Shown here piece by piece: positions 4,264-56,967 of a stretch of DNA of 60,871 nucleotides. Every line of letters starts with the position of its first letter. Position 1 is the stretch's first letter. Position numbers and translations under genes: made by a program. Origin of the DNA: an uncultured Methanosarcinales archaeon (GTDB lineage Archaea > Nanobdellota > Nanobdellia > Woesearchaeales > GW2011-AR4); the NCBI GenBank assembly GCA_964611745.1, contig CAZTBE010000002.1, positions 1 through 60,871 of the forward strand. The letters run 5' to 3'. The notes beneath the pieces are model-generated. The model was not told the origin of the DNA. It did not search any database and saw only the letters and a program-made list of their open reading frames with translations.

Positions 4264-6115
4264 ATTAGCAGGCTTTACTGGACTAACAGTAGGAATGCTG
4301 TTTGGGGTAATAGATTCTATGGTCAGAGTTATGGCCTGGAGTTTTGAATGGTTTGAATTATATCAAACATTACTGGTATCGGCTGTATTAGCCACTCTAG
4401 GATTTGTCATAGTGGGTATTTTTATAGAACTATTCGGAAAAGCTTTAAGGTTAAACTTTACGAAAAAAAACTTACTTGTTTTTTATGTTGTAAGTTCTAT
4501 ATTGGTTATGCTGCTTGTTTATGGAGAAATTTTTATCAATTTTAAATTGTTTGATGCTTTCACTAGATCCTATCAGCCAAGAATTGTAGTAAGCTTACTA
4601 TTCCCCTTAATCGTTGGTTTGATTTATATTGCATTATTAACCAAAGGAAAGGAGATTGTATTGTATATAGTGAATTACACTCAAAGAAAAAAATTAAAAG
4701 TGTTAGCTAAAAATTTTATTTTTGTAGTACTTATTTTTATCATAACTAGCTTTCTAGTGGATATATACTTCTTGAATTCTATACAAAATTATTCATATAA
4801 TAAAGAAACAAATGAAGTCCCAAATGTAGTCTTCATAACACTAGATACTGTAAGGGCAGATCACCTTTCTCTTTATGGCTACTATTTGAATACCAGCCCC
4901 AATATAGATAATCTTGCTAAAGATTCTGTTGTATTTGATAATGCTGTGTCTCCTTCACCATGGACGCTTCCAAGCCATGCATCATTTTTTTCAGGAAAAT
5001 ATTTGTTCAACCATAATGCTACAATAGCAAATCAGCATCTTGATAACACTGAAACAACTTTGGCGGAAATTTTAAGGGCAAAAGGTTATAATACTGCTGG
5101 ATTTGTAGGAGGCCCATACACAAAAAAAAAATATGGAATTGGACAGGGCTTTGAAACATATAAGGACAGAATTGATTTTTTTGAATATGTGCAGACCTTT
5201 AATAACTGGGGTATCACCTATATTATTACTGAATTCTTTCCAGGGGTTTATAAAATATTAGGTTCTGATGGTTTTAGATCTTCAGAAGATTTAAACAAAG
5301 ATATTTTTGCATGGCTTGATAAAAACAGCAAACAATCTTTTTTCATGTTTATAAATTATTTTGATGCTCATGATCCTTATAACTTAGGGAGCGAATTTAG
5401 AGACCAATTTGTAAATGAAACAAAAAAGTATCCAGATATTGATTTATGGAACTTTGAACGATATAAAAGTATTTCTGAAGACACTATCTACCACTTGAGT
5501 AGACTTTATGATACTGAGATATTCTTTCTTGACTATCATCTTGGAAAGTTTGTCAACAAGCTTGATGAATTAGGCATCAAAAATAATACCATTATAATTA
5601 TAACAGCGGACCATGGAGAAGAATTCTATGACCATGGTGGTTTCCTTCATACTCAAACACTTTATGAGGAAGTTATTCATGTCCCTTTGATTATTTATTA
5701 TCCAAAAGAGTTTAAGAGTAAAAGCATACATAACAGAGTAGAAGCAATGGCCATTTTTCCTACTATTTTGGATATCCTTGATGTAGAGATTCCCAGAGAT
5801 ATTGATGCAACTAGTCTTTTGCCGCTTATAAATAATGAACAGGGCTATAATAAGAAATATGCCTTCTCTGAATTATTCAGTAAACCAAGACGGAGTGATC
5901 AACCGATATCGGCAAATTTACAGTTTAAATCAATTTCCGATGATAACTGGAAAATTATAGAAGCAGAACCGAATATAGAGATTTTACCCCCTTCCCTTTT
6001 TAATTTAAAAACTGATCCAAGAGAACAAAAGAATTTTTATGATGTCTACCCTAATAAAAGAAAAGAGTTGCAGAAATTAATAGCCTCTTTAACAGAGGAC
6101 GACGAACAAAAGTAA
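4241..6115 (+). CDS. membrane-anchored sulfatase-fold (AP superfamily) protein with Thr/His in place of the Cys/Arg of the formylglycine motif
   Basis: The ORF opens at TTG 4193. ATG 4241 is preceded by AGGAGG (4223-4228). Several N-terminal TM helices are followed by [28 protein letters not shown] and [14 protein letters not shown]. Confidence 0.8.
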
Positions 6116-50707: not shown

Positions 50708-51403
50708 TTAGTCCATAATCCTATATTTTATTAGATAAAATACTGCTTTTATTCCGTCCTTCCATGTTATCTTTTTGCCTTCATTAAATTTTCTTCCTAC
50801 AAAATTAATCGGGATTTCTGTTATTTTATAGCCTTTCTTGAGAATTTTGGCTGTAATTTCCGGTTCAAAGTCAAAGCGTTTTGCTTTTAAATTCATATTT
50901 TCTATCACTTCTTTCCTGAATACTTTATACCCTGTTTCCATATCAGTTATTTTTGTTCCGTATAATATGTTTGTAACTGCTGTAAGAAGCATATTGCCTA
51001 AATAATGAAGCTTATACATGTTTTTTATGTTCTCTCTAATTGCTTCTATCCTGGAACCATAGACCACTTTTGTTCTATTTTCCATTATTGGTTTTAACAA
51101 TTTTGCATATTCTATTGGATTGTATTCCAAATCAGCATCCTGAATTAGGATTATATCTCCAGTTGCATGTTTTAAAGCAGTCCTTATCGCAGTTCCTTTT
51201 CCCCTATTTTTTTGGTGGAAAAATATCTTTAAGCTAGAGTCTTTTAATTCTGACAGGATTTTTTTTGTGTTATCTGTTGAAAAATCATCAACAATAACAA
51301 TCTCTTTTGTTATGTCTTTTAATTCAGTTCTTTTTACTTTGCTGATTACTTCTAAGATATTGTTTTCTTCGTTGTATACTGGGATTATTATTGATAATTT
51401 CAT
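50708..51403 (-). CDS. GT2, polyprenyl-phosphate sugar synthase-like
   Basis: IIIPVYNEENNI, VDDFSTD, QDADLE. 231 aa. Confidence 0.85.
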   Translation of the reverse strand: MKLSIIIPVYNEENNILEVISKVKRTELKDITKEIVIVDDFSTDNTKKILSELKDSSLKIFFHQKNRGKGTAIRTALKHATGDIILIQDADLEYNPIEYAKLLKPIMENRTKVVYGSRIEAIRENIKNMYKLHYLGNMLLTAVTNILYGTKITDMETGYKVFRKEVIENMNLKAKRFDFEPEITAKILKKGYKITEIPINFVGRKFNEGKKITWKDGIKAVFYLIKYRIMD

Positions 51404-51448
51404 CTATAGTGTAGAATAATAAGGTATTTTAAAAGTTATTGGTTAGAA

Positions 51449-51991
51449 TCAATTACCTTTATGCAACTCAATAATCTTTTTTATCAAATCAGTTGTGGAA
51501 TAGCCTTTAACCTCAGGTATTAAAATTATCTTGCCGTTATTTTTTTCTACAGTGTCTTTTTCAATTATTTGGTCCATCTTGTAGTCCCCGCCTTTGGCAT
51601 GAATATTTGGTTTTATTTCTTCAAGAAATTTTATTGGGTTGTTTTCACTGAATATTGTCACATAGTCAACACATTCTAACGAAGCAAGAGCTTCTGCTCT
51701 ATCATTTTCGTGGTTTAATGGCCTTTTTTGTCCTTTAATTTGTTTTGTTGATAAATTAGAGTTTATAGCTACAATTAAAACATCTCCTAGCTTTTTTGCT
51801 TCTTTTAAATATCTTATATGGCCGATATGCAGAATATCAAAGACACCATTTGTTGTTACAACTACCTTATTCTCTTTTTTTAGGTCTTCAACTATATTTT
51901 TTAGTTCACTCGAAAAAACAATCTTTTTTCGGTGTCCCGAAAAGCTTTGCTTTTCTAGGACGTCAATAGTTTTTATTTTTTGTTTTTCCAT
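51449..51991 (-). CDS. hldC: D-beta-D-heptose 1-phosphate adenylyltransferase (RfaE domain II-like cytidylyltransferase fold)
   Basis: TNGVFDILHIGHIRYL, GDVLIVAINS, KGGDY. Confidence 0.8.
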   Translation of the reverse strand: MEKQKIKTIDVLEKQSFSGHRKKIVFSSELKNIVEDLKKENKVVVTTNGVFDILHIGHIRYLKEAKKLGDVLIVAINSNLSTKQIKGQKRPLNHENDRAEALASLECVDYVTIFSENNPIKFLEEIKPNIHAKGGDYKMDQIIEKDTVEKNNGKIILIPEVKGYSTTDLIKKIIELHKGN

Positions 51992-52027
51992 TTTCTGCCA
52001 TTAATTTTTATCAAATCTATTATATTA

Positions 52028-52579
52028 TTATTGCTTTTTATTGTTCATAATAAAATCAGCAGCTTTGAAAAAATCTTCAGCAATAAAATCAGGCTTTAGA
52101 CCTTTTTTTCCCAGATTCTCAAAATGCTTTTTACCATGGCCAGTTAGCATATAGACATTTCTGCAATTAGCCTTCACTCCCATCTCAATATCATGCAGGT
52201 GATCTCCTATCACCCAGGAGTTTTTTATGTCTATGTCGAATTCCTTTGCTGCTTCCTCGATGTATTTTGTGCTTGGCTTTCTGCAGTCACAACTTTCCTC
52301 TTTTTTATGCGGACAATGATATATTTTTTTTATATCTATACTTCCTTTTTTCAACTCATCAATCAGTTTTTCATTGAATTTTCTCATATCTTCCTCTGTA
52401 TACATTCCTAATCCTATGCCGGATTGGTTTGTTATGATAACAAAAATAAATTCACCTGAAAGAGCTTTTAACCCTTCTATTACTCCTGGCAGCAGTTTGA
52501 AATCTTCCACTTTGTAGACATAATAATTTGGGTCCTCTACTAAAGTTCCATCCCTGTCCAGATAAATAGCTTTAACCAT
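52028..52579 (-). CDS. gmhB: D,D-heptose 1,7-bisphosphate phosphatase (HAD)
   Basis: YLDRDGTL HAD motif I and Zn-finger-like CPHKKEESCDCRKP. ATG 52579 overlaps the upstream stop (ATGGTTAA). The ORF track opens at TTG 52606. Confidence 0.8.
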   Translation of the reverse strand: MVKAIYLDRDGTLVEDPNYYVYKVEDFKLLPGVIEGLKALSGEFIFVIITNQSGIGLGMYTEEDMRKFNEKLIDELKKGSIDIKKIYHCPHKKEESCDCRKPSTKYIEEAAKEFDIDIKNSWVIGDHLHDIEMGVKANCRNVYMLTGHGKKHFENLGKKGLKPDFIAEDFFKAADFIMNNKKQ

Positions 52580-53543
52580 TTTCAATGCTCTTTTTAAGCT
52601 CTTCAATACTTACTGTAGATGTCCCTATCTTTCCTACTGTTATGCCTGCTGCATGATTAGCTATTATGGCGGCTTCTTCAAATGAAGCTCCTGATGCTAA
52701 AGCTAATGTTAGGGTAGCAACAGATGTATCTCCTGCACCAACAATATCATAGACCTCTTTGGCAAATGTTGGTATACTTGTGATTTTTCCATCTTTTTCA
52801 AACAGAGACATGCCTTTTTCCCCTTTTGTTATCAAAACATTGCTGTCTAGCTCTTTTAACAGTTCTTTTCCAATCTTTTCTGCATTAGCATCTGACTCTT
52901 CTTCAATACCAGCCATCTCATACGCCTCTTTATGGTTTGGTGATATCAGAGTAGCATTTTTATAGAACTCTTTGTGCTTTGGTTTCGGGTCAACTACAAT
53001 TATCTTATTTTTTTCCTTGCAAAGTCCTATTACCTTTTCCACCAGGTTTTTTGTTATTACACCTTTTGCATAATCTGAGATTATGATTGCATCAATTTCA
53101 TCTATTTTTTTGTAAATGAAGTCAAGAATATCATTTTCTGTTTTAACATCAACATAACCTTTCTTTTCATAATCAAATCTTAGCAATTGCTGATTTCTTC
53201 CAAAGACCCTGACTTTCTGTATGGTTCTTTCATTTCCATCTTCTATTAAACCACTTACATCTATACTTCTTTTTTTAAGCTCGTCTATTAATTTGTTTTT
53301 TGTTGAATCTTTTCCAACAACACCTATCATGAATGATTTTGCATTTAAAGCTGCTATATTATTTGCTACGTTTGCAGCGCCTCCTGGAGTATAGCTTTCT
53401 TTGATAACATTGACAACCTGGACAGGAGCTTCCGGGCTTATTCTTGAAACACTGCCCCAGATATATTTGTCCAGCATAACATCCCCTAAGACTATGATTT
53501 TTTTATTTTTGAATTGCTCAATAACTCTAATTAAATTATTCAT
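52572..53543 (-). CDS. hldA: D-beta-D-heptose 7-phosphate kinase (RfaE domain I, PfkB family)
   Basis: VLGDVMLDKYIWGSVSRISPEAPV, GGAANVANN, GAGDT. ATG 53543 overlaps the hldD stop (ATGAATAA). Confidence 0.8.
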   Translation of the reverse strand: MNNLIRVIEQFKNKKIIVLGDVMLDKYIWGSVSRISPEAPVQVVNVIKESYTPGGAANVANNIAALNAKSFMIGVVGKDSTKNKLIDELKKRSIDVSGLIEDGNERTIQKVRVFGRNQQLLRFDYEKKGYVDVKTENDILDFIYKKIDEIDAIIISDYAKGVITKNLVEKVIGLCKEKNKIIVVDPKPKHKEFYKNATLISPNHKEAYEMAGIEEESDANAEKIGKELLKELDSNVLITKGEKGMSLFEKDGKITSIPTFAKEVYDIVGAGDTSVATLTLALASGASFEEAAIIANHAAGITVGKIGTSTVSIEELKKSIENG

Positions 53544-54447
53544 TTTCCCACCCATTTTCATCTAACCAATTAAAATAATCTTTAATACTTTCTTTTAATG
53601 GCCATTTTGCCTTAAAGCCAAGAATATTTTCTGCTTTTGTTGTGTCTGCCTGTGTATCAGCTTGGTAAGTTTTAGGATCATAAGGCATGTCAAAATATTC
53701 TGTTTTGAGATTTTTTCCTAAAACATCATTTAAAACTTTAATTAAATCATTGAAGGTTGTTGCAATGCCTGTTCCTACATTATAAATTCCGCTTTTTGCA
53801 TTTACTGCTTTGATAGTAGCATTGACAGCATCTTTGACATAAATATTGTCGCGTTTTTGCTCGCCAAGTTTAAAAATTCTTGGATTTTTTCCAGCTTTAA
53901 TTTGTTTGCCTAAATGATATATCATAGATGCTGGACGTCCTTTATACGCTTCTCTAGGGCCGAAAACATTAAAGTATCTTAATCCTACAATGTGCATGTC
54001 GTCAAATAATTTTTCTGCCATATTATCCATTTCTAGTTTTGATTTTCCATAAGCACTTAGAATTTCTTTTTTCTGGCCTTCTTTCATTGGAACTTGCCCA
54101 TTACCATATAACCCTGCTGTTGATGCGTAAATTAATTTGGCATTGTTGTTTTTTGCAAGCTCTATTATATTTTTGAAACCTTGTATATTCTTATTGTAAG
54201 TTTCCTCATCATTTGGATATCTTGGATCAGTTATTGCAGCTTCATGGAAAATCACATCAAATTTTTCATTAAGCTCAAATGATTCTGAAACATCTAATTC
54301 AATAATTTTACCTTTAAAACCATTTAAATTATTTTTATTTCCAGAATTTAAATTGTCAACTATTGTGACTTCATGCCCTTGTTTTTCTAGTTCTAAAGCT
54401 AAATTAGAGCCTATAAAACCTGCACCACCTGTTACTAAGCATTTCAT
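53536..54447 (-). CDS. hldD: ADP-L-glycero-D-manno-heptose 6-epimerase-like SDR
   Basis: VTGGAGFIGSNL, HEAAITD, YGKSKLEMD. 303 aa. The start overlaps the cupin stop (ATGA). Confidence 0.75.
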   Translation of the reverse strand: MKCLVTGGAGFIGSNLALELEKQGHEVTIVDNLNSGNKNNLNGFKGKIIELDVSESFELNEKFDVIFHEAAITDPRYPNDEETYNKNIQGFKNIIELAKNNNAKLIYASTAGLYGNGQVPMKEGQKKEILSAYGKSKLEMDNMAEKLFDDMHIVGLRYFNVFGPREAYKGRPASMIYHLGKQIKAGKNPRIFKLGEQKRDNIYVKDAVNATIKAVNAKSGIYNVGTGIATTFNDLIKVLNDVLGKNLKTEYFDMPYDPKTYQADTQADTTKAENILGFKAKWPLKESIKDYFNWLDENGWENE

Positions 54448-54803
54448 TTTGGCAGCTCCAACTTGTCTAAATCAACTTTTCCTGATAATTCATCGCGGTA
54501 TGAATCAGAATCTTCATGATGTGTTGAGAATTCTATTATTTCACTGGGTTCTAAGCCTGTAAAGCGGTGTTTTGTATTTGGTGTTATAAGGATAGAATGC
54601 CCAGGAAGCATTATCTGTTTTTTATTGTCAGTTTCCATTAAGACCTTGCCTGCTAGTATATAGAATGTTTCATCCTTGTTTTTGTGGTAATGCATTGAGC
54701 ATCTGAAACCTTTATTTAGGATTAACTTTTTTCCGCAATAATTTCTATTGGCAATTATTTCTTCATGACCCCATACTTTCTTAACTATCTTATGTTCTGT
54801 CAT
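54444..54803 (-). CDS. cupin, phosphomannose-isomerase-type (candidate sedoheptulose-7-phosphate isomerase)
   Basis: 119 aa. WGHEE, SMHYHKNKDETFYILAG, TKHRF. First gene of the heptose operon. Confidence 0.6.
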   Translation of the reverse strand: MTEHKIVKKVWGHEEIIANRNYCGKKLILNKGFRCSMHYHKNKDETFYILAGKVLMETDNKKQIMLPGHSILITPNTKHRFTGLEPSEIIEFSTHHEDSDSYRDELSGKVDLDKLELPK

Positions 54804-54853
54804 ATTAGTATGAATAGTTCATACTTCTAGTATATAAATGTTTCGTTATTGTA

Positions 54854-54963
54854 CGTGCCCGTACAACAGCGTATTGGGGTGTCTCAGACACCCCGAGACC
54901 GCAACATCAGGAGCTGTCTCGGATCGTGCAGTGCGAAGCACTGTACACTAGTGTGCGGGTACG
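54854..54963 (+). ncRNA. candidate structured RNA or structured DNA element E (four-way junction)
   Basis: Closing stem 54854-54865 with 54952-54963 (12 bp, 2 G-U). Hairpin GGGGTGTC/GACACCCC (54876-54894). Hairpin GAGAC/GTCTC (54895-54920). Hairpin GTGCAGTGC/GCACTGTAC (54926-54946, 1 G-U). The wobble pairs work only on the + strand. No known RNA family recognised. Confidence 0.3.
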
Positions 54964-55014
54964 CATAAATAGAAAAATATATAAAGTATGAACTTATACT
55001 ACTATTTTATACCT

Positions 55015-55764
55015 ATGACTAAACCTAAAATCGCAATAAGTCTGGATAAAAGCCTGCTTAATCTTGTAGACAGCAAGGTGGACGGTTCTGTAATAAGGTC
55101 CAGAAGCCAGGCAATGGAGTTTTTTCTGAAAAAAGGTCTGCAGGAGCAGTCTATCAATACAGCTGTTTTACTGATAAAAGGAGAGCACCAGAAAAATTTG
55201 TTAAAGAAACTGAAAGGAAAATCATTATTAAAAAATCAATTAGAATTTTTTGTCAAAAATGGGATAAATAATGTATACATTGTTACGCAGCATACTAAAA
55301 ATATTAATTTGTTATTAAATGAAATTTCTGATGCGAAAATTAATGTTGAAGTAGTTGAGACAAATGCTAAGGGAAATGCAGAGGCCTTGCAATCTGTCAA
55401 AGAAAAAATAAAAAATAGCTTTATTGTAATGTCAGGAGACACGTATAATAATTTTGATCTGTTGAAGATGATAAAAAAGCATCTGGAATTGGATAAAATG
55501 ACTACAATGGGATTAATGACTAGGGAGAAAATCAGCGGCTATGGAACTGCAATCTTAGATGGGGATCTTATTGTTGATTTCCAGGAAAAACCAAAACAAA
55601 GCTCTACGAATATTGTCAATGCTGGGATTTATATCTTCAAACCAGAAGTTTTTGAGCTGTTTGAGAATGCCAATAGTTTAGAAAAAGATTTGTTTCCTAA
55701 ACTTGCAAGATTAAAGCAGCTTATTGGGTTTTTTACGTATGGAGAATATGAGCATTTAGAGTGA
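55015..55764 (+). CDS. ribbon-helix-helix (CopG-like) domain fused to a degenerate sugar nucleotidyltransferase-like domain
   Basis: The ORF opens at ATG 54988, but the TATA-like box at 54975-54986 favours ATG 55015. KIAISLDKSLLNLVD...RSRSQAMEFFLKKGL fits beta-alpha-alpha RHH. The NTP_transferase-like core keeps SGDTY, EKP and NAGIY but has LLIKGEHQKNL where GGxGTRL is expected. Confidence 0.65.
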   Translation: MTKPKIAISLDKSLLNLVDSKVDGSVIRSRSQAMEFFLKKGLQEQSINTAVLLIKGEHQKNLLKKLKGKSLLKNQLEFFVKNGINNVYIVTQHTKNINLLLNEISDAKINVEVVETNAKGNAEALQSVKEKIKNSFIVMSGDTYNNFDLLKMIKKHLELDKMTTMGLMTREKISGYGTAILDGDLIVDFQEKPKQSSTNIVNAGIYIFKPEVFELFENANSLEKDLFPKLARLKQLIGFFTYGEYEHLE

Positions 55765-56967
55765 TTACCTCTTTCTTTTTTTCATAACCTTATCAACCAA
55801 AGAAGTAACATCATCAACCTGTATCCTTTTTACACATGCATTTTCCATGCCGTGCTTACATTCACCAACTTCACCTTTATGGACATTTATGCATGCTTTT
55901 TGAAAAGCAAGCGGCACACTACGTGCGAGGTGGGATTTTTTGTAGATAGAATAATTATTTTTTCCGAATGGTGCAAATCTTACTGGCAGGTTGCATCCAA
56001 ATAAACCAATTGTTTTTACATTTTGAGCAGCTGCAACGTGCATTGGCCCTGAATCATTGCCAATAAATAATCTACATAAGGAAATCAGATAAAACATTTC
56101 TCTAACATTTATTTCTCCAGAAACATTAAAAGAATTATTTTTACCTACGGAGTTGGTACCGGATTTTGTCCGAGTATTTTCAATTAAATTTTGCAATTCG
56201 TCGATTAAATTTTTTTCTTTATCATTTCCAATTAAAAATATTTTTGCATTATACTTTTTTATTAAATTGTCTGCAAGTTTTGCAAACTTTTCTTTTGGCC
56301 ACATCCTTGATTTTGCACTTTCAGCAGCTCCAACACCAAAGCCAACAAGAAAATTTTTTTTCTCAATATTATATTTTTTTAATAAGCTATCGACATTTTT
56401 TTTATCGTTTTTTGAATAATTTAATTGAGATAATTTTTCAACTCTTTTTTTAATTCCTAATGGCTTTAATAAATCTAAAAATGTATAAACAACGTGCTGC
56501 CTATCATTATAATCAACTTTGTCAGTGTACAAATTTGACCTTATTCCATGAGAAAATCCAATTCTGCGCTTTCCTGTAAAAAATGCTATTATGGATGATA
56601 TGTTGAGGTATTCTTCCATGTCTATTGCAAGATCATATTTTTTGAAATTAAGTGACATAAAAAGTTTTATAGAAATTGGATTTAATTTCAGAACTTTTAC
56701 ATCATTAATATATTTATTCTTATAATAGACTTCCTTGTTTCTTCCAGTCACTAAAATATCTATATTGCTTTTTTTATACTGCTTTCTTAACACTTCTATT
56801 GCTGGGAGTGTTAATATTGTTTCGCCTATGCCCCATAACTGGATAATCAATATTTTATTATATTTATGGATTTTTTTATATCTGAGAAGCTTGTTTATTG
56901 ATAGAAATGAACATAATAAGGAACCAGCATATTTATCCAGAAATTTTATTAGATTAACGGATACCAT
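55765..56967 (-). CDS. GT9 family glycosyltransferase (heptosyltransferase-like)
   Basis: ILIIQLWGIGETILTLP, GNDSGPMHVAAA, C-terminal Cys cluster. Its stop codon abuts the stop of the convergent gene. Confidence 0.8.
   Translation of the reverse strand: MVSVNLIKFLDKYAGSLLCSFLSINKLLRYKKIHKYNKILIIQLWGIGETILTLPAIEVLRKQYKKSNIDILVTGRNKEVYYKNKYINDVKVLKLNPISIKLFMSLNFKKYDLAIDMEEYLNISSIIAFFTGKRRIGFSHGIRSNLYTDKVDYNDRQHVVYTFLDLLKPLGIKKRVEKLSQLNYSKNDKKNVDSLLKKYNIEKKNFLVGFGVGAAESAKSRMWPKEKFAKLADNLIKKYNAKIFLIGNDKEKNLIDELQNLIENTRTKSGTNSVGKNNSFNVSGEINVREMFYLISLCRLFIGNDSGPMHVAAAQNVKTIGLFGCNLPVRFAPFGKNNYSIYKKSHLARSVPLAFQKACINVHKGEVGECKHGMENACVKRIQVDDVTSLVDKVMKKRKR

Follow-up and report, generated by a model that had tools for sequence, protein, structure and literature searches.

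PutA, BirA and NadR each fuse a DNA-binding domain, which in PutA is a ribbon-helix-helix (RHH), to a metabolic enzyme domain that is catalytically active. B. subtilis PurR (PRT-like) and NrtR (Nudix-like) are local repressors that bind their effector in an enzyme fold which has given up catalysis, and their DNA-binding fold is a winged helix. GMPPA, the inactive paralogue of GDP-mannose pyrophosphorylase, is reportedly an ex-enzyme that binds the NDP-sugar product of its pathway for feedback control; it carries a C-terminal left-handed beta-helix and acts allosterically on the enzyme GMPPB rather than on DNA. The heptose pathway includes a short, single-domain nucleotidyltransferase, D-glycero-alpha-D-manno-heptose-1-phosphate guanylyltransferase (HddC), which has an intact catalytic loop and no RHH. 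NikR is a repressor with an operator in the promoter, and consists of an N-terminal RHH followed by an ACT-like C-terminal domain that binds nickel and oligomerises.

The locus analysed here shares something with each of these systems. It lies in a window of 60,871 nt (the whole stretch of DNA under analysis) from a tiny uncultured DPANN archaeon with a genome of 1.1 Mb, and encodes an RHH joined to a nucleotidyltransferase-like domain (RHH-NT protein). As in PutA, BirA and NadR, a DNA-binding and a metabolic-enzyme module are combined in one chain, but here the catalytic signature is lost; PurR and NrtR, which have lost theirs as well, possess neither an NDP-sugar pyrophosphorylase fold nor an RHH. 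The enzyme-like domain belongs to the same fold family as GMPPA (7d72, Foldseek E about 1e-16) and is akin in length to HddC, whereas the overall layout differs from that of GMPPA in that the protein bears an RHH and comes to an end with the NT domain itself, at residue 249. Among solved structures, the head is closest to NikR (E. coli 1q5v/2hzv, P. horikoshii 2bj1), and the C-terminal domain is likewise presumed to bind a ligand and to oligomerise, the presumed ligand being a sugar nucleotide instead of a metal.

Taken as a whole, the evidence makes it fairly probable that the RHH-NT protein is a repressor acting locally, on its own gene as well, and that its ex-enzyme domain serves to sense a nucleotide-sugar of the heptose pathway. 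If this is true, the NDP-sugar pyrophosphorylase would be a new sensor fold among one-component regulators, and archaeal transcription would be tied to precursors of cell-surface glycans (ADP-heptose). A literature search retrieved no published description of an RHH-NT fusion or of a regulator of this type. Gene regulation is hardly known in DPANN archaea, which cannot be cultured alone and in which very few transcription factors can be recognised; the locus offers a concrete candidate triplet of regulator, operator and target operon that is accessible with recombinant protein and synthetic DNA.

Start codon and domains of the RHH-NT protein

The open reading frame initially called for this gene spans 54988-55764 on the plus strand. 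Its existence was upheld, but its start was not. The ATG at 54988 lies inside an operator half-site, GTATGA (54986-54991), just 3′ of a TATA box, and the majority of homologues are 249 aa long and begin with MTKPK or MKKPK at a Met equivalent to 55015. For these reasons we placed the real start at 55015, giving a coding region of 249 codons plus stop (55015..55764) and leaving the first nine codons (54988..55014) as a spurious extension. At the related locus L003, the ATG equivalent to 54988 does not share the reading frame of the gene. Databases annotate members of the family as enzymes ("mannose-1-phosphate guanylyltransferase", "NTP transferase") or as "hypothetical", an annotation that the present analysis revises for both start codon and function.

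Residues 1-46 (55015..55152, plus strand) constitute the RHH domain, which is predicted to bind DNA. AlphaFold modelled the protein with a pLDDT of 94.4, leaving residues 1-11, which include the beta strand KIAISL, extended and followed by helices 12-20 and 30-44. In RHH proteins the second helix is capped by Ser, Thr or Asn; here R30-S31, in the turn, occupies that N-cap position with a conservation of at least 90%, and the alignment columns of strand residues K5, A7 and I8 and of the R30-S31 turn are invariant. Taken alone, the window protein matched the NikR model TIGR02793 weakly (residues 5-49, E 0.006, score of 16.8 against a cut-off of 175). The family profile of the N-terminal 46 residues matched E. 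coli NikR (1q5v) at E 3.5e-10, the antitoxin Rv0298 at 2.9e-7 and CopG at 2.2e-5, and 59 of the 145 family members matched Pfam RHH_1 (PF01402). This profile similarity over a beta-alpha-alpha unit of about 45 residues, together with the predicted strand-helix-turn-helix order, places the segment in the RHH superfamily. The initial annotation had read it as a CopG/NikR-type head on a nucleotidyltransferase remainder, and the profile searches and the AlphaFold model bear out both halves of that description. It had also considered the protein to be the sole DNA-binding protein of the window, which agrees with what the scan covered: 20 other ORFs of at most 310 aa contained no DNA-binding Pfam domain, and seven small ORFs gave no match of any kind.

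The remainder of the protein, residues 47-249 (55153..55761, plus strand), has an NDP-sugar pyrophosphorylase-like (GT-A/Rossmann-like) fold and not the ACT-like tetramerisation domain, bearing a His/Cys nickel site, found at this place in NikR. It matched PF00483 (NTP_transferase) at E 3e-24, with 86 bits where the gathering score is 21.2, and the best Foldseek matches of the model were GDP-mannose pyrophosphorylases (E about 1e-17 [2.7e-17], TM 0.73). The closest solved relatives by sequence include HddC (6jq8/5xhw, E 1.5e-11), although the protein scored 38.6 bits against the HddC model NF049965, far below its cut-off of 300.

The loss of the GGxGTRL nucleotide loop, also claimed from the initial reading of the sequence, was confirmed. 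The PF00483 match begins only at position 21 of the 245 profile positions. Where intact family members have ILAGGxGTRLxPxTxxxPKP, the window protein has LLIKGEHQKNLL, a loop about 9 residues shorter, so that the stretch KGEHQKN (residues 54-60; 55174..55194, plus strand) replaces GGxGTRLxPLTxxxPK. The G-x-G-T-R-x(n)-P-K signature, absent from the window protein, is kept by the family members P0200, P0220 and P0232 and by a paralogue in the same genome. In RmlA/GlmU-type enzymes, the Arg and Lys of this loop stabilise the leaving pyrophosphate. At the C-terminal end the GxWxDxG motif reads GEYEHLE: of the pair of metal-binding Asp residues, D142 of the GD motif is retained, with a conservation of at least 90%, and the second is replaced by His247 (codon 55753..55755, plus strand) throughout the orthologue clade. 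In contrast to these losses, Y176, G177, E191, K192, N202, G204 and Y206 (motifs YG, EKP and NAGIY) are invariant or nearly so, and a pocket predicted to accommodate nucleoside, sugar and phosphate appears to be retained. With the catalytic loop and one metal ligand gone, catalysis is probably lost, and the preserved pocket points to ligand binding instead.

Predicted promoters, operators and the intervening repeat

The gene diverges from a heptose operon on the minus strand, as the initial annotation had stated, and each side of the intergenic region displays a predicted promoter followed by an inverted repeat. On the operon side, a BRE/TATA-like element, CGAAAC ATTTATATA in minus-strand reading (54831..54845), belongs to a conserved TTTAAAT...TTTCG block that adjoins the palindrome in relatives. 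Downstream of this TATA box, at a distance of 3 nt from the first gene's start codon, lies O1, AGTATGAA-TAG-TTCATACT (54807..54825), of the form GTATGA-N5-TCATAC. On the other side, the element AGAAAA ATATATAAA (54971..54985, plus strand), part of a conserved GAAAA-TATA(A/T)AAA block, likely serves as the promoter of the RHH-NT gene. Between this TATA box and the start codon is O2 (54986..55012), which reads GTATGA-N15-TTATAC with a central TACTAC at 54997-55002; the general form of this second operator is GTATGA-N15-TCATAC.

With at most one mismatch, GTATGA-N5-TCATAC is present upstream of the gene in 64 of 77 related loci. Across 928 kb of such loci it was found 85 times, always upstream of the RHH-NT gene, and other spacings of the half-sites yielded 0 to 4 matches each, save N15 with 18. 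The N5 palindrome is present in a single copy in the window and in the whole 1.1-Mb genome of this archaeon. For this reason, the regulated unit would consist of the heptose operon and the RHH-NT gene itself; the broader suggestion that the protein governs the entire 60-kb glycosylation island was not supported. A search of 301 whole genomes allowing one mismatch returned about 2-3 matches per genome, equal to the control, and gave no co-occurrence signal. Exact palindromes were located 6-9 nt from the starts of distant homologues in two genomes (G018 and G183).

The operator of E. coli NikR is GTATGA-N16-TCATAC (PMC7055735), with the same half-site as O1 and O2. Its spacing differs from that of the sites described here, in which the half-sites are separated by N5 (one turn) or by N15 (two turns, with a middle box). 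The beta strand of NikR reads R-T-T where that of the RHH-NT protein reads K-A-S, and because of this difference the identity of the half-sites could be a coincidence.

Between the two promoters lies element E (54846..54970), a GC-rich, strongly folding sequence (−62 kcal/mol, z −6.2) that directly adjoins the RHH-NT gene region, as had been remarked. Rfam searches (gathering and E-value) and a tRNA scan of the element gave no match. It is missing from the related loci L001, L003 and L004 and has 29 partial copies in its own genome, suggesting that it is an inserted repeat, and it was rejected as a component of the regulatory system. The proposal that GC-rich spacers A to E are the regulator's targets is not likely to hold, given that element E is such a multi-copy insert.

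The heptose operon and its predicted regulation

The putative target operon (50708..54803, minus strand) comprises genes for a cupin (54444-54803), the HldD epimerase, the HldA kinase, the GmhB phosphatase, the HldC adenylyltransferase (51449-51991) and a GT2, the Pfam labels having been transferred from homologous loci. In nearly all of the approximately 80 Woesearchaeota loci with enough flanking sequence, the RHH-NT gene is divergent from HldA/GmhB/HldC. HldA is present in 15 of the 18 genomes with an RHH-NT orthologue compared to 64 of 301 overall. Conversely, 49 of these 64 HldA-bearing sampled genomes lack an RHH-NT orthologue, indicating that the operon can manage without this gene. The RHH-NT protein is more conserved than HldA in 63 of 63 loci, and than GmhB and HldC in 56 of 56 loci each, the cupin and HldD being the sole operon enzymes that are not less conserved. 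A local regulator is not usually so well conserved, which hints that other constraints act on the protein too. We rejected the possibility that the protein is a missing nucleotidyltransferase of the operon, which has its own HldC and does not need it as an enzyme.

We propose that the protein acts as a local one-component transcription regulator. Members of the RHH superfamily dimerise by way of an antiparallel two-stranded sheet that inserts into the major groove, and they bind DNA sequence-specifically; the conserved GTATGA/TCATAC repeats beside the gene, spaced by one turn, are indirect evidence that this protein may do likewise. Its NikR-like head would dimerise and read GTATGA/TCATAC hexamers one helical turn apart, occupying O1 between the TATA box of the heptose operon and the start codon, and O2, with its N15 spacing and TACTAC box, at the equivalent place of its own gene. 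Occupancy of these sites would keep the archaeal pre-initiation complex from assembling, thereby repressing the operon and placing the gene under autoregulation. The C-terminal domain, a former NDP-sugar pyrophosphorylase, would keep the RHH dimers together and also accommodate a heptose-pathway metabolite, either a nucleotide-sugar or a sugar-1-phosphate. As ligand we favour the end product, ADP-heptose or another NDP-heptose, which may act as a co-repressor.

Two other roles of the C-terminal domain were weighed against sensing. A protein whose pocket residues are invariant is hardly a mere scaffold, which would have no need of them; the conserved positions (GD, YG, EKP, NxGxY) line the substrate pocket and are not confined to the surface. 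We thus regard as unlikely a ligand-blind repressor in which the ex-enzyme domain is an oligomerisation scaffold or a docking surface for enzymes of the pathway, with control being constitutive or exerted by protein contact. Such a role would fit the fact that these NT domains are oligomeric (the Foldseek matches include structures of GMPP, RmlA and AGPase) and the behaviour of GMPPA, which is said to work by contact with its catalytic paralogue and whose complex, 7d72, is also among these matches; the high conservation is compatible with several protein interfaces. About as unlikely is an active sugar-1-phosphate nucleotidyltransferase that makes an alternative NDP-heptose and represses as well, in the manner of BirA, NadR and PutA. 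In such a trigger enzyme, the conserved KGEHQ and His247 could make an unorthodox catalytic or metal site, and the invariance of D142, E191-K192 and NAGIY, the conservation of His58 along with His247, the very high conservation of the whole protein, the sequence relationship to HddC and the coupling of an RHH to a fully intact enzyme in the same genome (see below) all speak for it. Yet the pyrophosphate-stabilising loop is deleted, Lys60 varies in the wider clade, the second metal-binding Asp is a His, the HddC model is missed by a wide gap and HldC is already encoded in the operon.

Less probable still is that another protein reads GTATGA/TCATAC and that the RHH-like segment serves dimerisation or some other role. 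The seven small ORFs of the window without family assignment could supply such a reader, but the palindrome accompanies the gene in the loci counted above and is absent elsewhere in them and in the archaeon's own genome, R30-S31 does not vary, nor do K5, A7 and I8 of the strand, and TCATAC repeats recur upstream of distant paralogues. The reading that we prefer remains that of a repressor whose RHH head binds O1 and O2 and whose pocket senses a heptose-pathway nucleotide-sugar.

Related fusions in DPANN archaea

Paralogues with 30-36% identity to the RHH-NT protein occupy unrelated gene neighbourhoods, and pairs of TCATAC at N4/N5 were present in 33 of their 59 upstream regions compared to 0.46 in shuffled sequences. 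Shuffled rather than reversed sequences were used as the control because TCATACT reads identically backwards. Inspection by eye upstream of two paralogues in the archaeon's own genome revealed no clear repeat. One own-genome paralogue (C22:1287-2141) joins an RHH to an intact enzyme with GGKGTRL...PK and GQWFDIG, and from its presence an active enzyme-repressor is likely the ancestral state of the family. A single genome would then hold an apparent evolutionary series from an intact enzyme-repressor fusion to a pure sensor.

About one third of sampled Nanoarchaeota genomes appear to carry the fusion, often as several paralogues each. We tentatively suggest, as a possibility that falls short of probable, that the RHH-NT fusions of DPANN archaea are transcription factors responsive to nucleotide-sugars and together make up a large class so far undescribed, ranging from trigger enzymes that are still intact to pseudoenzyme sensors and sharing one NikR-like head and the operator word GTATGA. 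If so, the clade of the window protein would provide the first known case of a transcription factor that senses an NDP-heptose. The distant members with an intact loop lie mostly on short contigs on which the neighbourhood is rarely readable; one family member from Diapherotrites has a phosphomannomutase gene on one side and another NT gene on the other.

A nucleotidyltransferase-like protein with a ribbon-helix-helix head

The ORF at 54988-55764 (plus strand) was confirmed in the window, but the nine codons at its 5′ end almost certainly go untranslated. Because ATG 54988 is part of the hexamer GTATGA (54986-54991), the majority of the 712 homologues are 249 aa long with an MTKPK or MKKPK start, and the equivalent upstream ATG is out of frame in one relative (L003), we placed the predicted start at 55015, giving a product of 249 aa. 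A TATA-like box, ATATATAAA (54977-54985), lies directly 5′ of the hexamer. The host is a DPANN archaeon with a low-GC genome (about 32%), and all close homologues of the ribbon-helix-helix (RHH)-nucleotidyltransferase protein, hereafter RHH-NT, carry Woesearchaeota or Nanoarchaeota labels. The stop codon of the gene directly adjoins (55762-55767) that of a GT9 heptosyltransferase gene on the minus strand (55765-56967), which is convergent with it, so that no intergenic room is left for a terminator.

The initial annotation had proposed an RHH N-terminus fused to a nucleotidyltransferase-like remainder that has lost its catalytic loop, and all three elements of this description were borne out. 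Taken alone, the window protein matched the NikR model TIGR02793 weakly (residues 5-49, E=0.006). The family data settle the head as RHH at the level of sequence profiles: a profile built from residues 1-46 retrieved Escherichia coli NikR (1q5v, E=3.5e-10), the RHH antitoxin Rv0298 (2.9e-7), CopG (2.2e-5) and Pyrococcus horikoshii NikR (1e-4), and 59 of 145 aligned relatives matched Pfam RHH_1. An AlphaFold2 model built from the 145-sequence alignment (pLDDT 94.4, pTM 0.84) has residues 1-11 extended, followed by helices at 12-20 and 30-44, as would be expected for a monomeric RHH domain, in which strand pairing occurs only in the dimer.

The rest of the protein is an NDP-sugar pyrophosphorylase fold. 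It matched PF00483 with E=3e-24, its best solved sequence relatives were a UDP-glucose pyrophosphorylase, the heptose-1-phosphate guanylyltransferase HddC and GDP-mannose pyrophosphorylases, and the best Foldseek matches were VTC1, GMPPB and GMPPA (E about 1e-17, TM 0.73). In enzymes of the RmlA/GlmU type, catalysis and metal binding fall to the loop Arg and Lys and to the two Asp. The ILAGGxGTRLxPxTxxxPKP signature of intact fusion members is replaced in the clade of the window protein by LLIKGEHQKNLL, about nine residues shorter, and the PF00483 match leaves out the first 20 of the 245 profile positions. At the C-terminus, G-x-W-x-D-x-G has become G-E-Y-E-H-L-E, where the chain ends. Asp142 of the GD motif, Y176-G177, E191-K192-P and N202-x-G204-x-Y206, whose counterparts in enzymes line the nucleoside/sugar/phosphate pocket, are invariant or nearly so; His58 and His247 are also conserved. 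Loss of catalytic residues with retention of the pocket is the pattern expected of a pseudoenzyme sensor, although it is no proof of inactivity. Databases label the protein an enzyme or hypothetical, and a full-text search of the literature gave no description of a regulator that joins RHH and nucleotidyltransferase domains. Judged by its domains, RHH-NT would be a one-component RHH regulator whose new part is the enzyme-derived sensor fold.

Predicted operators in the divergent spacer

Alignment of the upstream regions of RHH-NT loci revealed a conserved layout of TATA-like boxes and GTATGA/TCATAC sites. The predicted operator O1, AGTATGAA-N3-TTCATACT (54807-54825), adjoins the start codon of a cupin gene and is preceded, on the strand of that gene, by the BRE/TATA-like sequence CGAAAC-ATTTATATA. 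O2, GTATGA-N15-T(C/T)ATAC around a central TACTAC (54986-55012), adjoins the regulator start codon, with AGAAAA-ATATATAAA ahead of it; among more distant orthologues it takes the form of an N5 palindrome directly against the TATA box. Both sites lie between TATA box and start codon, the classical location for archaeal repressors that block pre-initiation complex assembly. When at most one mismatch is allowed, 64 of the 77 non-redundant upstream regions contain GTATGA-N5-TCATAC, and all 85 matches in 928 kb of locus DNA were upstream of an RHH-NT gene. Spacings of 0-20 other than 5 and 15 gave 0-4 matches each. The N5 palindrome occurs once in the window (0.04 expected) and once in the 1.1-Mb genome.

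E. coli NikR has an operator, GTATGA-N16-TCATAC (PMC7055735), with the identical half-site hexamer, and NikR is the closest solved relative of the head. However, since the strand residues differ (K-I-A-I-S-L in RHH-NT, R-V-T-I-T-L in NikR), this identity may be partly coincidental.

As initially annotated, the gene is next to element E, a 125-nt GC-rich segment (54846-54970) inside the divergent spacer. It folds at -62 kcal/mol (z -6.2) into a 12-bp closing stem with three hairpins, gave no match in Rfam or tRNA searches, and is absent from relatives. Its 29 partial copies in the same genome, with conserved ends, make it look like a MITE-like repeat. Sequence comparison identifies it as an insertion between the two divergent promoters that leaves both predicted operators untouched; O1 and O2 are 197 nt apart in the window, compared to modal distances in relatives near 94 and 105-107. 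RHH-NT is unlikely to bind element E. Other GC-rich insertions occupy the same spacer in L014, L054, L056, L007 and L061. In one Woesearchaeota genome (L001/L006), a LAGLIDADG-type homing-endonuclease-like ORF (5019-5849) separates the cupin gene from O1, which still lies beside the regulator.

The heptose operon and a possible mode of regulation

According to Pfam labels from homologous loci, the divergent operon comprises the cupin gene (54444-54803, minus strand), followed by genes for an HldD-type epimerase, an HldA-type kinase, a GmhB-type phosphatase, a cytidylyltransferase-fold HldC (51449-51991) with an FDILHIGH motif, and a GT2. As this ADP-heptose pathway has its own adenylyltransferase, HldC, RHH-NT is not needed as an enzyme. 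The 119-aa cupin has weak phosphomannose-isomerase-type matches. An SIS-type GmhA was not observed among the genes of the operon, and the cupin may therefore stand in for the enzyme that opens the pathway.

The divergent arrangement noted initially extends beyond the window: across 80 species-level genomes from the GTDB set, nearly every locus with enough flank carries HldA, GmhB and HldC on the other strand, 2-5 kb upstream, and downstream most of these loci also have a GT9 heptosyltransferase, DUF2304 and GT2. Of 301 evenly sampled genomes of the phylum, 18 had an RHH-NT orthologue (E below 1e-59), and 15 of these 18 had an HldA orthologue, mostly adjacent, compared to 64 of 301 overall.

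We propose that RHH dimers, linked through their nucleotidyltransferase-like domains, would contact hexamers spaced by one turn of the helix, and that occupancy of O1 and O2 would repress the regulator's own gene along with the heptose operon. A nucleotide-sugar or sugar-phosphate of the heptose pathway in the former active site would modulate DNA affinity. We favour end-product co-repression by analogy with GMPPA, which reportedly binds GDP-mannose, and because what has been lost is the element gripping the NTP beta and gamma phosphates, and not the nucleoside-sugar pocket; the ligand and the sign of the response are guesses.

Three observations do not fit this proposal. One is the conservation of His58 and His247. 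In addition, many genomes with a heptose operon have no RHH-NT orthologue, and RHH-NT is more conserved than HldA (63/63 loci), GmhB (56/56), HldC (56/56) and GT9 (62/62), with a median identity to the window protein of 74% compared to 50-60%, which is unusual for a local repressor and its target enzymes. Stacked constraints from DNA, ligand and oligomer, or an additional role, may account for this slow evolution. RHH-NT was also more conserved than DUF2304 at every locus compared (L005-L084).

The wider RHH-NT family

A 50%-identity representative library contains more than 120 clusters whose alignments span the whole protein with its RHH, at identities down to 28%; about 10% retain an intact catalytic loop and the others have many different degenerate loops. 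Full-length homologues occur in 101 of 301 sampled Nanoarchaeota genomes, and the genome of the window has three, including the window gene. One paralogue (284 aa; G000:C22:1287-2141, minus strand, L099) combines the same RHH head (KERITITLD) with fully canonical GGKGTRLRPVTLKMPK and GQWFDIG, an intact nucleotidyltransferase that is by its motifs a candidate bifunctional enzyme-regulator. Across Woesearchaeota this paralogue is conserved, at 74-90% identity. The other (237 aa; G000:C6, L100 6404-7117, minus strand) has a degenerate loop, has also lost the GD Asp, and is divergent from a methyltransferase/cupin/DegT aminotransferase operon for NDP-aminosugar synthesis. It is co-directional with GT2 and large membrane glycosyltransferase genes.

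Of 59 upstream regions from paralogues sharing 30-36% identity, 33 contained a TCATAC pair at N4/N5 (27 direct repeats), compared to 0.46 in shuffles. In genomes G018 and G183, homologue starts have exact GTATGA-N5-TCATAC palindromes at a distance of 6-9 nt. The link between head and DNA word thus holds family-wide and in unrelated neighbourhoods, which is the strongest argument that RHH-NT itself would bind the predicted sites. In paralogues (L101-L160), TCATAC direct repeats often lie immediately upstream of BRE/TATA, for example TCATACTTTATCATACAAAA-GAAAC-TTTAAATA, unlike the window, where the sites are downstream. Such repeats could act by activation or BRE occlusion rather than start-site blockage.
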